Shown: in pieces, positions 51,612-54,861 of the stretch
Layout: every line of letters starts with the position of its first letter
How positions within the stretch are numbered: position 1 is the stretch's first letter
DNA from: Thermoplasmata archaeon
Lineage (GTDB): Archaea > Thermoplasmatota > Thermoplasmata > GCA-020350865
Reading direction: 5' to 3'
DNA length: 64,000 bases
Assembly (NCBI GenBank): GCA_020348445.1
Contig: CP070751.1
Span: 4,588,960 to 4,652,959, forward strand
Notes under the pieces: model-generated
Databases searched by the model: none
Seen by the model: only the letters and a program-made list of their open reading frames with translations
What the model was told of the DNA's origin: nothing
Made by a program: the position numbers and the translations under genes

Positions 51612-51772
51612 CGGTGACGGCAGGATTCGAACCTGCATGCCCCCGAAGGGACCTGGATATTTGTGGCAAAGACTCCATTCCATCGAATGCATTCGATTCT
51701 GGTGAGCCATAGCATTCTGTTGAATACCATAAGCATTCAAATCCAGTGCGTTTGCCATTTCGCTACGTCACC
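51612..51772 (-). tRNA. tRNA-Ser(TGA) with 77-nt intron at 37/38
   Basis: GGTGACG/CGTCACC acceptor, G73, CTGGA-TTTGAA|A-TCCAG, long variable arm, TTCGAAT; BHB imperfect. Confidence 0.7.
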
Positions 51773-51777
51773 AAATG

Positions 51778-51850
51778 CGCTCCCGATGAGATTCGAACTC
51801 ACGTTGCCTGGTCGAAAGCCAGCCATGCTTGACCTCTACATTACGGGAGC
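51778..51850 (-). tRNA. tRNA-Glu(TTC)
   Basis: GCTCCCG/CGGGAGC acceptor, loop CTTTCGA, TTCGAAT. Confidence 0.85.
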
Positions 51851-51857
51851 ATTATAG

Positions 51858-51931
51858 AGATGGGGGTGAGACTTGCACTCACAATCATCTGATCTGCAGT
51901 CAGAGGCATTCTCTATTTCTGCCAACCCATC
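51858..51931 (-). tRNA. tRNA-Cys(GCA), atypical D and T loops
   Basis: TCTGA-CTGCAGA-TCAGA, U73; T-loop TGCAAGT, D-loop lacks GG. Confidence 0.75.
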
Positions 51932-51934
51932 ATC

Positions 51935-52011
51935 TGGTAGGTGTGCCGGGATTTGAACCTGGAATAACCACCTTGTAAGGGTAGCTGCATTACCTGCAAT
52001 GCTTCACACCC
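51935..52011 (-). tRNA. tRNA-Val(TAC), CCA encoded
   Basis: Loop CTTACAA, TTCAAAT, A73-CCA. Confidence 0.8.
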
Positions 52012-52405
52012 CCCACGATCTCACATGTTCTGCGTAAGGGTGAGAAAGTATCAGCTCAAGGTTCTGCTCCGCAATGAGCACGATCCATAGGAAAAAGAGG
52101 ATTAAAGCCTCGATGTCCTGTTTTGGATGTAATTCTTCCTTTGTAAGTTGAGCCTTGATTTCCCTGAGCTTCTTTTTGTTTCTATGATATCCTATCTTCG
52201 TTTCGGCATGGATTTTGAAGTGGCACCCTCTGCACTTAATCACTGTGTTTTCCAGTGTGTCCAGTCCACCTCTTTTCTTTGGGATCTTGTGATGAATCGT
52301 CAGGTTCTGAGTTATTCCACATTCCGTGCATTGATTGTAATCAAGGACAAGCCTCATTCTCTTAAGAAGAGGCCTTGGTAGTTCCTCTTTCATGTTGTAC
52401 TTCAT
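52004..52405 (-). CDS. HNH endonuclease within tRNA array
   Basis: CxxC...IHHKIP...GG...N....CxxCH..IH; GGTGA RBS before ATG 52405; stop overlaps tRNA-Val 5' end. Confidence 0.85.
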   Translation of the reverse strand: MKYNMKEELPRPLLKRMRLVLDYNQCTECGITQNLTIHHKIPKKRGGLDTLENTVIKCRGCHFKIHAETKIGYHRNKKKLREIKAQLTKEELHPKQDIEALILFFLWIVLIAEQNLELILSHPYAEHVRSWGV

Positions 52406-52429
52406 TTTTTTCACCCTTTCATCTGGGAG

Positions 52430-52503
52430 TGGAATCGGGTGGATTCGAACCACCAGCCTTCTCCTTGCAAGGGAGATGCTCTTTCCAGTTGAGCTACGAT
52501 CCC
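52430..52503 (-). tRNA. tRNA-Ala(TGC)
   Basis: Canonical cloverleaf, G3:U70, loop CTTGCAA. Confidence 0.93.
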
Positions 52504-52507
52504 ATGA

Positions 52508-52675
52508 TGGTGCAGGAGGTAGGATTCGAACCTACGATGTTAGCCCTATGGCGACAGATTTCCCAGAGCAAGTCTTTGAGTTTACTCACCTAAGTTTGCT
52601 CACCTTTAAGTTTGAGCCTCAGAAGAGCGTACCCTTCTTAGTCTGCCCTCTTCGACCATGCTCAAGCACTCCTGC
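52508..52675 (-). tRNA. tRNA-Leu, anticodon AAG as written, 76-nt intron at 37/38, CCA encoded
   Basis: Archaeal Leu-type D arm and variable arm, A73; GCAGA-CTAAGA|A-TCTGT; 7+7 nt BHB geometry. Confidence 0.75.
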
Positions 52676-52683
52676 GTATGAGG

Positions 52684-52755
52684 TGCAAGATACGGGAGTC
52701 GAACCCGTCTCACCTGCTTGGAGGGCAGGTATGTCGCCTCCAACACCTATCTTGC
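52684..52755 (-). tRNA. tRNA-Gly(TCC) with C33
   Basis: CCTGC-CCTCCAA-GCAGG, TTCGACT, perfect acceptor. Confidence 0.8.
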
Positions 52756-52763
52756 ATATGATA

Positions 52764-52835
52764 TGCGCCCGGAGAGCTTCGAACCCTCTTTTCCTCGCTG
52801 GCTACGAGGTAGTCTACCCATTGACTTACGAGCGC
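52764..52835 (-). tRNA. tRNA-Gly(GCC) with A33
   Basis: CCTCG-TAGCCAG-CGAGG; T-loop TTCGAAG; identity less certain. Confidence 0.65.
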
Positions 52836-52850
52836 AGAAGAAAGACCAAA

Positions 52851-52948
52851 TAGGCGTGGGGGGATTCGAACCCCCAATCTCCCCTTTATCAGAAGGGTGC
52901 GTTGACGGCTCATAAGACCGTTGCGATGCCAGGTTACGCCACACGCCT
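52851..52948 (-). tRNA. tRNA-Ile(GAT) with 24-nt insertion forming a second TAT anticodon-like arm
   Basis: AGGCGTG/CACGCCT acceptor, CCCTT-CTGATAA-AGGGG, insert 52903-52926. Confidence 0.75.
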
Positions 52949-52955
52949 ATTCTGA

Positions 52956-53055
52956 TAGTGCCGGGAGGATCCGGCCCTCCATTACCAAGTTTCTTTTAAG
53001 GTCTGTAAACATTCCAAAATCAAAGCCTGGAGTGTTACCATTACACTACGGCACT
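52956..53055 (-). tRNA. tRNA-Gln(TTG) with 29-nt intron at 37/38
   Basis: A1:U72, CCAGG-CTTTGA|A-CTTGG, BHB helix CTTT/AAAG; abnormal T-loop GCCGGAT. Confidence 0.75.
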
Positions 53056-53111
53056 GAAGAAGAAAGATAGAACTAGGACATAGAAGAAGACAAAAGAGAA
53101 TCTTTTTTCCC

Positions 53112-53214
53112 ACCATATCCTAATAAAATCCTTCTTACAGCAAATGGTCTATCTGACCGACAGCTGCGGATGAGAGGAGCACCGAGCTCCGCGTCTCACC
53201 TAATAGGATATGGT
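53112..53214 (-). ncRNA. Candidate structured RNA (multibranch) downstream of internal promoter
   Basis: 11-bp closing stem 53112-53122/53204-53214 with two inner hairpins; strand inferred from TATA at 53244-53252. Confidence 0.5.
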
Positions 53215-53243
53215 ACATTAGCTTCCCCGTATGTAAGAAGTTA

Positions 53244-53252
53244 TATTTATAA
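53244..53252 (-). promoter_or_regulatory. Putative TATA box for third tRNA sub-operon
   Basis: TTATAAATA on minus strand about 30 nt before the structured RNA. Confidence 0.45.
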
Positions 53253-53290
53253 TTTGCAGTTGATTTTGGATTTTTTTATTTCTAATAAAA

Positions 53291-53364
53291 TGGAGAGGAT
53301 GGGATTCGAACCCATGACGACCGGTTCTTCAAACCGGCGAACTCCCATGCTGTTCTACCTCTCC
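53291..53364 (-). tRNA. tRNA-Phe(GAA)
   Basis: Fully paired cloverleaf, loop TTGAAGA. Confidence 0.92.
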
Positions 53365-53369
53365 ATGAA

Positions 53370-53441
53370 TCTGCCCCGGGAGATTCGAACTCCCTCATCA
53401 TGGTCTACAGCCATGCATGCTACCATTGACATCAGGGGCAG
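53370..53441 (-). tRNA. tRNA-Tyr(GTA), archaeal type
   Basis: C1:G72, A73, short variable loop, loop CTGTAGA. Confidence 0.88.
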
Positions 53442-53448
53442 TAAAAAA

Positions 53449-53573
53449 TGAGCCTGGAGGGATTCGAACCCCCGATCTTTCGGATTTCTTCCATTAGAGC
53501 TAAATTCGGATCAGCATAGTAAGTTCTAATGCTAAGAGTCCGCTGCTCTAATTCCTAGCTGAGCTACAGGCCC
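53449..53573 (-). tRNA. tRNA-Lys(CTT) with 47-nt intron at 37/38
   Basis: GCGGA-CTCTTA|A-TCCG; BHB with 7-bp intron stem CATTAGA/TCTAATG. Confidence 0.88.
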
Positions 53574-53577
53574 ATAA

Positions 53578-53653
53578 TGGCGGTAGGGGCCGGACTTGCA
53601 CCGACGTTGGCCTGATTAACAGTCAGGAACCATAGCTTCTCGGCCACCCTACC
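53578..53653 (-). tRNA. tRNA-Asn(GTT), atypical D and T loops, CCA encoded
   Basis: CCTGA-CTGTTAA-TCAGG, G73-CCA; T-loop TGCAAGT, D-loop lacks GG. Confidence 0.8.
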
Positions 53654-53672
53654 AAATCGAATTAGTAAAAAA

Positions 53673-53769
53673 TGGGAAGTGCAGGATTTGAACCTACATC
53701 CAGTGGAATCTTTATTTCTTTAAAAAAACACCCAAACCACCGAGTCTATCCAGGTTAGCCTAACTCCCC
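53673..53769 (-). tRNA. tRNA-Pro(TGG) with 23-nt intron at 37/38
   Basis: GGTGG-TTTGGG|T-CCACT, AT-rich intron hairpin, TTCAAAT. Confidence 0.8.
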
Positions 53770-53789
53770 AAAACAAGTAAGAAAATACC

Positions 53790-53869
53790 TGACACTAATC
53801 CAACACGTTTCGAATCCAAGCCCTATGGCCTAAAGGGCTTATTTGGTTTATATGTTGATGTTTGTGTCA
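53790..53869 (-). ncRNA. Candidate rod-like hairpin RNA downstream of internal promoter
   Basis: Nested stems TGACAC/GTGTCA, CAACA/TGTTG, AAGCCCT/AGGGCTT. Confidence 0.5.
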
Positions 53870-53894
53870 TAAGCGCAGTGTATGTTAGTTTTGT

Positions 53895-53902
53895 TATATA
53901 AA
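53895..53902 (-). promoter_or_regulatory. Putative TATA box for second tRNA sub-operon
   Basis: TTTATATA preceded by A-rich BRE-like run; predicted start about 53871. Confidence 0.5.
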
Positions 53903-54025
53903 ATTTTTTAAGAACCAGCAAGGAAATTCGAAAGTCAGAAACATAGCCTCCGCTAACCCCATTGTCCGATTTATATTTTTGATACATCATGTGTATCTGT
54001 GGGCCTTAATTAGGGCGAATGAAAG

Positions 54026-54158
54026 CGCCCACCGAGGGACTCGAACCCCCACAAACCAGATATCTCCAGAGCGATAATAACGGATATAGAAGTATCACCT
54101 TCCGTAGTTTCACCTTCCTTTCAGGAATCTGGTGCACTATCCATTATACTAGGTGGGC
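54026..54158 (-). tRNA. tRNA-Arg(CCT) with 60-nt intron at 37/38
   Basis: CCAGA-TTCCTG|A-TCTGG, BHB helix TTCC/GGAG, A20 in D-loop, G73. Confidence 0.85.
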
Positions 54159-54165
54159 ATATGAG

Positions 54166-54240
54166 CGGTCAGGAGGGGATTTGAACCCCTATCAAAGGAG
54201 TGACAGTCCAGTATGCTAACCTGTTTTACACCACCTGACC
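54166..54240 (-). tRNA. tRNA-Asp(GTC)
   Basis: Loop CTGTCAC, G73, TTCAAAT; anticodon stem only 3 bp. Confidence 0.75.
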
Positions 54241-54246
54241 ATTAGA

Positions 54247-54315
54247 TGGGTTGGATAGGATTTGCACCCATGTTGGCGGTTTTGGAGACCGACGTATTCT
54301 GGCATTGCTCAACCC
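54247..54315 (-). tRNA. tRNA-Trp(CCA) with reduced D-arm
   Basis: CGGT-CTCCAAA-ACCG; T-loop TGCAAAT; only about 69 nt. Confidence 0.6.
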
Positions 54316-54322
54316 ATGAGGA

Positions 54323-54393
54323 TGGGAAAAGTAGGAATCGAACCCACAATAAGAGAGTCACAGTCTCCCGGTTTACCATTAACCTATTTCCCC
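54323..54393 (-). tRNA. tRNA-His(GTG), atypical acceptor end
   Basis: GGAGA-CTGTGAC-TCTCT, GGTT/AACC D-stem, TTCGATT; A73 rather than C73. Confidence 0.75.
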
Positions 54394-54442
54394 TTCACGA
54401 ATCTTTTAAAATAATCTGATGAGCTTCCTTTTTTTAAGTAGA

Positions 54443-54514
54443 TAACGAGAGGGGAATCGAACCCACCAACATCGGGTCATGGGCCCGACGGTTTTCCAAT
54501 TAGCCTATCTCGAT
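54443..54514 (-). tRNA. tRNA-Met(CAT), initiator-like
   Basis: A1:U72, three G:C pairs TCGGG/CCCGA, loop CCCATGA (C33); irregular T-stem. Confidence 0.75.
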
Positions 54515-54532
54515 ATGCAGAACTTAAAAAGA

Positions 54533-54607
54533 AGCCACCGGCGGGAATCGAACCTGCGTGGTCTTTCTTACAAGGAAAGTGCAAAAGCCAACATTTGCTA
54601 CGGTGGC
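54533..54607 (-). tRNA. tRNA-Thr(TGT)
   Basis: GCCACCG/CGGTGGC, U73, CTTTC-CTTGTAA-GAAAG. Confidence 0.9.
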
Positions 54608-54732: not shown

Positions 54733-54748
54733 TATTTAAATTTACCGA
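54733..54748 (-). promoter_or_regulatory. Putative BRE/TATA promoter of the tRNA array
   Basis: Minus strand TCGGTAAA-TTTAAATA upstream of first tRNA. Confidence 0.6.
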
Positions 54749-54757
54749 AAGGTAAAA

Positions 54758-54808
54758 GATATTACATCCACGCCAAGACAAAATATGAGTGGGAAGTTCC
54801 ATTGTGAG
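54758..54808 (+). pseudogene. Orphan 3' end (about 16 codons + stop) of a NosD-gene paralogue; right copy of the 51-bp repeat
   Basis: Encodes YYIHAKTKYEWEVPL* versus YYIHAKTKCEWEVPL* at 51474; 4 of 5 differences synonymous. Confidence 0.8.
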
Positions 54809-54861
54809 TTTTTTAGAAAAAACCAACAGTTCCCCATCCAATCCAATCTCTTAGTCGTCAT

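Follow-up and report, generated by a model that had tools for sequence, protein, structure and literature searches.

An archaeal tRNA-Ile gene with UAU and GAU anticodon arms, tentatively read as an unspliced five-arm tRNA

The tRNA array in the window (the whole stretch of 64,000 nucleotides that was analysed) includes a 98-nt tRNA-Ile gene, 52948→52851 on the minus strand, that has two consecutive anticodon-type arms, one with UAU and one with GAU. We read this gene tentatively, at a probability of about 40%, as an unspliced five-arm tRNA-Ile that would present UAU in the anticodon position, as do the two-armed tRNA-Ile genes of certain phages. What is observed is how the gene is built, that it is conserved, that three of its helices show compensatory changes, that it has no proper splice motif and that phages have a counterpart. 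From this we infer an RNA that is left unspliced and decodes with UAU, and some function for the GAU arm.

Positions within the tRNA are given as indices (tRNA idx = 52949 − window position), and the features are collected in Table 1. The acceptor 5′ strand AGGCGUG is followed by UG, GCGU (10–13) and then AACCUGGCAU. Two D-stem registers can be drawn, GCG(10–12)/CGC(24–26), here register A, and GCGT(10–13)/ACGC(47–50), register B. A sequence-only reading of this DNA had described the insert at 52903–52926, its TAT hairpin and the GAU arm, all of which were recovered. Its two alternative drawings are both valid, and the two registers and two arms that they require are kept in all four variants available.

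In the alignment to the Rfam tRNA model, which scores 56 bits, the GAU arm is the anticodon arm and the D-loop takes up an insertion of ~30 nt. The GAU cloverleaf in this alignment has a 4-bp D-stem GCGT/ACGC, A26, a 5-nt variable loop, A37 and A73, and is canonical only when 24–33 nt of the D-loop are ignored or removed. Deletion of idx 23–46 gives GCGU-AACCUGGCA-ACGC and restores a normal GAU tRNA. ARAGORN run without introns does not call the gene. With introns allowed (-i), it reports Ile(tat) for the window gene and Glu(ttc) for the diverged variant V described below; the Ile(tat) call was discarded as support, the anticodon having been placed inside 52% of shuffled inserts. A scan of 16–31-nt deletions with ARAGORN was uninformative, as 505 deletions were accepted. 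Rfam and ARAGORN thus give opposite anticodons for one gene, and standard annotation does not cover this architecture.

Table 1. Features of the tRNA-Ile gene, positions changed in variant V, and array intron genes with three of four central pairs.
Feature	Index	Window positions	Strand	Details
Whole tRNA-Ile	1–98	52851..52948	-	Acceptor AGGCGTG/CACGCCT, discriminator A; Rfam RF00005, 56 bits
D-stem 5′ strand GCGT	10–13	52936..52939	-	Common to both registers
Register A D-stem 3′ strand CGC	24–26	52923..52925	-	Followed by A27 as position 26
Arm 1, ACGGT/CTTATGA/GCCGT	28–44	52905..52921	-	UAU at 52914-52912, loop positions 3–5
Linker CAACGCA	45–51	52898..52904	-	Invariant in the four variants
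ACGC in linker	47–50	52899-52902	-	Register B D-stem 3′ strand; A51 as second position 26
Arm 2, CCCTT/CTGATAA/AGGGG	52–68	52881..52897	-	GAU at 52890-52888; anticodon arm in the Rfam alignment
AGATT (5 nt) and T arm GGGGG/TTCGAAT/CCCCC	69–90	52859..52880	-	As in the Rfam alignment
24-nt insert	23–46	52903..52926	-	Candidate intron under the rival reading, frame i=22/j=46
Two tandem 24-nt modules	24–47 and 48–71	52878..52925	-	Each CGCA + 17-nt arm + 3 nt
V change	11 and 25			C→U and G→A; C-G → U-A in the register A D-stem
V change	33 and 38			C→U and G→A; UAU-loop positions 32 and 37; possible C-G → U-A hairpin extension
V change	55 and 65			U→G and G→C; U·G → G-C in the arm 2 stem
V change	64			A→G; U56-A64 → U·G in arm 2
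V change	63			A→U; arm 2 loop position 38
V change	21			C→A; D-loop
Lys intron gene		53449-53573		CUCU/GAAG, 3/4
Leu intron gene		52508-52675		CUAA/UGGG, 3/4
Pro intron gene		53673-53769		UUUG/AAAG, 3/4

The gene lies in an array of ~21 tightly packed tRNA genes on the minus strand (51612–54607), one tRNA gene per amino acid, together with a small HNH endonuclease gene. The genome, a single contig of 5.16 Mb, has many tRNA introns with bulge-helix-bulge (BHB) motifs and encodes EndA, TiaS and its own intron-free tRNA-Ile(GAU). A host CAU tRNA with an Ile-like body is probably tRNA-Ile2(CAU). The sole CAU tRNA of the array (54441–54515) has the loop CCCAUGA, in which C33 replaces U33 and G37 replaces A37; this loop ends in ...AUGA, as does the UAU loop of the Ile gene.

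The HNH endonuclease (133 aa; 52004–52405, minus strand) is encoded between tRNA-Ala and tRNA-Val. It has 11 close relatives in public data at 65–94% identity, two of which, with their DNA examined, occupy the same place in the same array. The protein diverges much faster than the surrounding tRNAs and spacers. When locus L024 (1000–1230) was compared with the window (54742–54830), similarity was found to begin sharply at the promoter-proximal end of the array (...CTTTCGGTAAATTTAAATACC), with none upstream. The array is therefore set in different surroundings in L024 and in the window, like a mobile cassette.

Four variants of the gene were compared, namely that of the window, L024:2916–3013, L025:384–481 and V, which comes from public DNA contigs of runs X1 and X3. 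The proposal that other arrays be searched for the same insert was borne out, since the three further array variants keep it. The scan of public metagenomes and genomes returned the array only as L024 and L025. Compared with the window, the Ile gene of L024 has one G-C → G·U change in the T stem and that of L025 one changed base in the variable loop. As the whole arrays, spacers and introns included, are ~94% identical to that of the window, these two say little on selection. V is ~91% identical to the window over 52851–53902, with no indels in the insert, and its Ile gene has nine changed positions among the differences listed (Table 1). All informative covariation comes from V, which is one diverged sequence reconstructed from tabulated differences. 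Among public runs, none of RNA was listed for the array, and the four that were compared with it consist of DNA contigs.

The X1/X3 array is a mosaic. Identity to the window is 97.6% over 51856–52680 and falls to the value given above over the segment with the Ile gene, and 170 nt that include two tRNA-Gly genes (52682–52836) are swapped for ~197 nt that cannot be aligned. This points to recombination or cassette exchange within the array.

The array was not found in 60 relatives, among them four genomes of the same genus, or in 400 genomes sampled across the phylum, and the remaining HNH-like loci have no array. Exact scans of IMG/VR with the T-arm/acceptor and with the insert gave no match, a 16-mer scan of the same collection gave 35 chance matches and no tRNA, and a scan with the HNH protein gave one locus, which is unrelated.

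Eight of the nine listed changes in V fall in helices of the five-arm fold or at positions 32 and 37 of the UAU loop. The stem of arm 1 is invariant across the four variants, and its loop is altered only in V, at 32 (C>U) and 37 (G>A). UAU, whose conservation among homologues had been raised as a check on the second arm, is the same in all four, as is the whole of U33-U34-A35-U36. In the four-sequence alignment, the fold that combines register A with arms 1 and 2 is 100% paired and shows three double changes; covariation equal to that observed was reached in 8 of 500 shuffles. On the same alignment the BHB fold loses the C21-G40 pair in V and has covariation at arm 2 alone, and register B has none, its C11-G49 pair merely becoming U·G in V. 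We estimate the probability of two extra double changes by chance at about 0.5–4%, allowing for the choice among candidate helices. Since all exon changes keep the structure, the gene is under selection and is no decaying pseudogene. Covariation, the sole direct evidence of selection, favours register A.

Calculated fold energies agree in their order between the window and the variant. Register A with the hairpin is the most stable fold in both (−33.7 kcal/mol in the window, −35.0 in the variant), followed by register B with the hairpin (−32.4 and −33.3 kcal/mol), which lies 1.3–1.7 kcal/mol above the best fold. The BHB folds (−30.8 and −26.4 kcal/mol in frame 23/45; −26.3 and −22.9 kcal/mol in frame 22/46) are above the hairpin folds by 3–7 kcal/mol in the window and by 9–12 kcal/mol in the variant. 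Hence the drawing of the gene as Ile(UAU) with a long extra arm, one of the two proposed in the sequence-only reading, has gained the compensatory change C11-G25 → U11-A25, the most stable fold and a match among phage genes.

The likelihood of a second arm arising by accident was assessed with 200,000 composition-preserving shuffles of the 24-nt insert. A 5-bp stem with a 7-nt loop was obtained in 9.7% of the shuffled inserts, such a hairpin with U33 (U at loop position 2) in 2.0%, and a U33 hairpin with an Ile-type anticodon in 0.1%. When the Ile-type hairpin was also to be preceded by CGC+N, and thus able to take over the D-stem, the share was 0.001%. The two tandem 24-nt modules are identical at 13 of 24 positions in an ungapped alignment (p=0.0027 by shuffling) and at 14 of 24 in the variant. 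With shuffle rates of 1e-3 to 1e-5 and this identity between the modules, the resemblance of arm 1 to an anticodon arm is to be ascribed to descent or design and not to accident. The stems of arms 1 and 2 differ at 7 of 10 positions, and pairing is perfect in both.

Each repeat comprises an anticodon arm preceded by position 26 and by the 3′ strand of a D-stem. The insert probably originated when 24 nt were duplicated within the gene or when two tRNA-Ile genes fused. No further copy of it was found in the 5.16-Mb genome at up to 5–7 mismatches, and its first 16 nt resemble no other D-strand/anticodon arm among the tRNAs genome-wide. Under a pure five-arm reading, ACGC at 47–50 is a coincidence of 0.4–3% unless it is a relic or selected. 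Under a pure intron reading, CGC together with the UAU arm is a far larger coincidence than ACGC, or else a relic. One duplication would account for both relics.

The splice motif was judged against the introns of the host, which have four of four central pairs, a 5-bp anticodon stem on one side and 1–5 bp on the other. The sequence-only reading had found a 4-bp TGGC/GTCA pairing at the insert and no other helix. That pairing is present; it is not the only one, as a better helix is formed by UGGC(18–21) and GCCG(40–43) with 3-nt bulges AUC and UCA. The outer geometry is then the D-stem, four unpaired bases and this helix. In frames 23/45 and 23/48 the central helix has 4/4 pairs in the window, with flanks 'xxxx' and 'x||xx', and 3/4 in V; in frame 22/46 it has 3/4 in the window, and no frame exceeds 3/4 in V. 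The motifs hBHBh′, HBh′ and hBH call for a central helix of 4 bp, 3-nt bulges and one or more flanking helices of at least 2 bp. None of them is formed at the boundaries of the insert, where there is no inner helix and no contiguous outer helix. By the published classification, a BHB without a flanking helix on either side is 'not BHB-like'. A BHB with the UAU hairpin as its inner helix was checked by hand and fails, CATC and CAAC being unpaired. No BHB that would remove the GAU arm is conserved between the window and the variant, and alternative splicing into two tRNAs is therefore unsupported.

A D-loop intron is found elsewhere in the host. The gene for tRNA-Ser(GCU) at C1:5072067–5072172 (locus L044), which ARAGORN does not call, has a 22-nt D-loop intron with Ha at idx 17–20. 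Its motif has a 4/4 central helix CCGG/CUGG, bulges UAA and AUA and a 5-bp inner helix, and the minimum-energy fold is the BHB. The other introns of the array are at the canonical position in the anticodon loop beside the anticodon, with 3/4 or 4/4 central helices, and are flanked by the anticodon stem and often also by 5–6-bp inner helices. Three of the six canonical array introns have 3/4 central pairs (Table 1), offset by the 5–6-bp inner helices, and the host introns have 4/4.

The host EndA is one two-domain protein of 362 aa (C1 ~548,040–549,128, minus strand; locus L021:1459–2547) that is closest to 5x89, an artificial beta-alpha fusion of M. kandleri EndA. No gaps are needed to align the catalytic domain of the host enzyme with that of M. 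jannaschii (1a79), and the domain is without the ~10-aa insert of 3p1z_B and 2cv8_A. Hence the host enzyme lacks the ~10-residue specific loop (L1/L2/L3), of Crenarchaea type, that the enzymes of A. pernix and Sulfolobus have. This loop is what lets EndA cut relaxed motifs, and loop-less enzymes process relaxed D-loop introns poorly (PMC5829648). The drawing of the gene with a D-arm intron, the other of the two proposed earlier, therefore holds as a fold and is weaker than had been thought, since a hBHBh′, HBh′ or hBH motif is missing and the EndA is strict. Judged from the motif and the enzyme, splicing of the Ile insert is possible, if poorly supported.

A pattern scan of IMG/VR for UUAURA...CUGAUAA...GUUCRAWUC returned 44 stretches, of which eight are clear tRNAs representing six distinct genes (L088, L093=L114, L102=L115, L106, L119 and L126). 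ARAGORN without introns calls all six as Ile(tat), with lengths of 89–94 nt. In the Rfam alignment of L126, too, the anticodon is UAU, and the GAU hairpin is treated as an insert in the variable region. The layout of the phage genes is a D-arm, N26, a UAU arm (YUUAURA), 2–3 nt, a 4-bp stem with a CUGAUAA loop, ~5 nt and the T arm.

The archaeal gene has the same order, with the UAU arm first and the CUGAUAA arm second, and its UAU arm likewise follows directly on the D-stem (GCG/CGC) and N26 (A27). The CUGAUAA loop and the order of arm 2 are shared with L093, L119 and L126, and a 3-bp D-stem with four of the six (L088, L106, L119 and L126). The archaeal gene differs in its longer linker (7 nt versus 2–3 nt) and longer arm 2 stem (5 bp versus 4 bp). 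Moreover, its linker completes a second, GAU cloverleaf through ACGC+A, whereas ACGC, and with it register B, is missing in the four phage genes inspected by eye (L093, L106, L119 and L126). Unlike the six phage genes, it is missed by ARAGORN without introns and assigned to GAU by Rfam, and it belongs to an archaeal host and to an array whose other introns are of the BHB type. Sequence similarity between the archaeal and phage genes is limited to the loops and, in L126, the arm 2 stem.

No description of a tRNA-Ile(UAU) with a GAU-loop extra arm was found in the published literature. The allo-tRNA(UAU) of Mukai et al. 2017 was considered as a precedent and set aside, no GAU arm being described for it. 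Among archaeal D-arm insertions, M. kandleri tRNA-Glu(UUC) has a D-loop intron with an HBh′ motif (PMC5829648), and D-arm insertions are found in Asgard tRNAs (bioRxiv 10.64898/2026.10.13.758758). Like such genes, the Ile gene has 24 extra nt in the D-loop of a cloverleaf that is canonical elsewhere, its D-loop bases can form a 4-bp helix with the 3′ portion of the insert, and the genome encodes an EndA. It differs from them in that the insert has no flanking helix, in that the central helix is lost in the variant, and in that the insert copies a D-stem strand and an anticodon arm for the same amino acid. A tRNA-Ile(UAU) occurs in Mycoplasma mobile, Nanoarchaeum equitans and Korarchaeum, which lack TilS/TiaS (PMC3575796). 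An encoded UAU would provide the same route to AUA without lysidine or agmatidine, but those tRNAs have four arms, whereas here the host has TiaS and UAU shares its RNA with a GAU arm.

According to the five-arm reading, a single RNA with five arms would have been built by the 24-nt duplication or by the fusion of two tRNA-Ile genes. With the 3-bp D-stem GCG/CGC and A26 as its support, the UAU arm would occupy the anticodon position and read AUA without TiaS or agmatidine. The GAU arm (CUGAUAA) would take the place of a long variable arm and may be a handle for isoleucyl-tRNA synthetase. A GAU-type anticodon loop is the main identity element for this enzyme.

This reading is favoured by the non-random arm with its own D-stem strand, by the covariation at 11/25, by the retention of UAU and by the energetics. 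The absence of a proper splice motif combined with a strict EndA also argues for it, as does the phage precedent, which comes from organisms unable to splice BHB introns. It is weakened by the best Rfam alignment, which is a GAU cloverleaf at 56 bits, by the 7-nt linker and the lack of an ARAGORN call without introns, and by ACGC, which occupies the very place of the D-stem strand in the GAU cloverleaf. D-loop introns of such a size are common in archaea, and one is at the same position in a host tRNA, which likewise counts against it. So does G37, present in three of the four variants, since G37 is unusual for a tRNA that reads a codon starting with A; G37 is also found in phage L126 and in the array's own tRNA-Met. 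Further points against are that the covariation comes from one diverged sequence and that the array would be left with no reader of AUU/AUC.

The main rival, only somewhat less probable than the five-arm reading, is that the gene is instead a tRNA-Ile(GAU) with a 22–25-nt non-canonical D-loop intron, cut by EndA at a degenerate BHB and joined by ligase, in which case the UAU hairpin would be merely the inner stem-loop of the intron and perhaps a relic of duplication. The canonical GAU cloverleaf with its 56 bits agrees with this, and GAU is the anticodon expected in an array with one gene per amino acid; the linker is long for a spacer between two arms, the 4/4 TGGC/GCCG helix with 3-nt bulges is placed inside the D-stem, and EndA is encoded in the genome. 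The host tRNA-Ser(GCU) has its 22-nt intron in the same D-loop geometry, and three more introns of the array have just 3/4 central pairs. The length is also typical, archaeal D-arm introns having a median of 22–23 nt, and just a third of them have a canonical motif (bioRxiv 10.64898/2026.10.13.758758). However, the flanking helix is missing on both sides, C21→A breaks the central helix in the variant, the BHB folds are less stable than the hairpin folds in both sequences and the host EndA is without the broad-specificity loop. A coincidence of 1e-3 to 1e-5 would be needed as well, or a duplication that happened to be spliceable, and the 11/25 double change would be left to chance, at an estimated probability of about 6%.

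The tandem modules would also be expected of an unspliced chimera, produced by deletion between UAU and GAU tRNA-Ile genes or by duplication, that is inert or works through GAU only with a tolerated hairpin; the small energy difference between register B with the hairpin and the best fold is in line with this. We consider it unlikely, since every change in the variants keeps the structure, with compensatory pairs in arm 2 and register A, since positions 32 and 37 have changed but UAU and U33 have not, and since stems that differ at 7 of 10 positions and still pair perfectly are not expected of a dead relic. Retention of both D-stem 3′ strands in the four variants, the nearly iso-energetic folds of the two registers and the lack of register B in the four phage genes inspected, which makes it special here, could be reconciled with a bistable tRNA. 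In such a molecule the D-stem would slide between CGC (24–26) and ACGC (47–50) and present UAU or GAU, so that the tRNA might be charged via the GAU form and read AUA via the UAU form, or one gene might serve AUU, AUC and AUA without agmatidine, as would suit an array with one gene per amino acid. Given that register B shows no covariation and that ACGC may be a relic of duplication, this is very unlikely, and we know of no decoding tRNA that swaps anticodon arms.

Compared with the published literature, the gene is one of two things, a D-loop intervening sequence of a new archaeal type or a two-armed tRNA-Ile of undescribed design, the first from an archaeon. If the RNA is unspliced, as the five-arm reading has it, this would be the first archaeal example known to us with two anticodon arms for one amino acid, and its new aspects relative to the phage genes would be that the host is an archaeon, that the gene lies in an array and that two D-stem registers are available. 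It would then be a test case for a GAU arm as a handle for isoleucyl-tRNA synthetase and for a mobile tRNA array that provides TiaS-independent decoding of AUA. The bypass of agmatidine through UAU, proposed in the sequence-only reading, would serve the array and not fill a gap in the host, where TiaS and a probable tRNA-Ile2(CAU) are already present. The gene is also a warning for the annotation of archaeal tRNAs that not every 'D-loop intron' is an intron.
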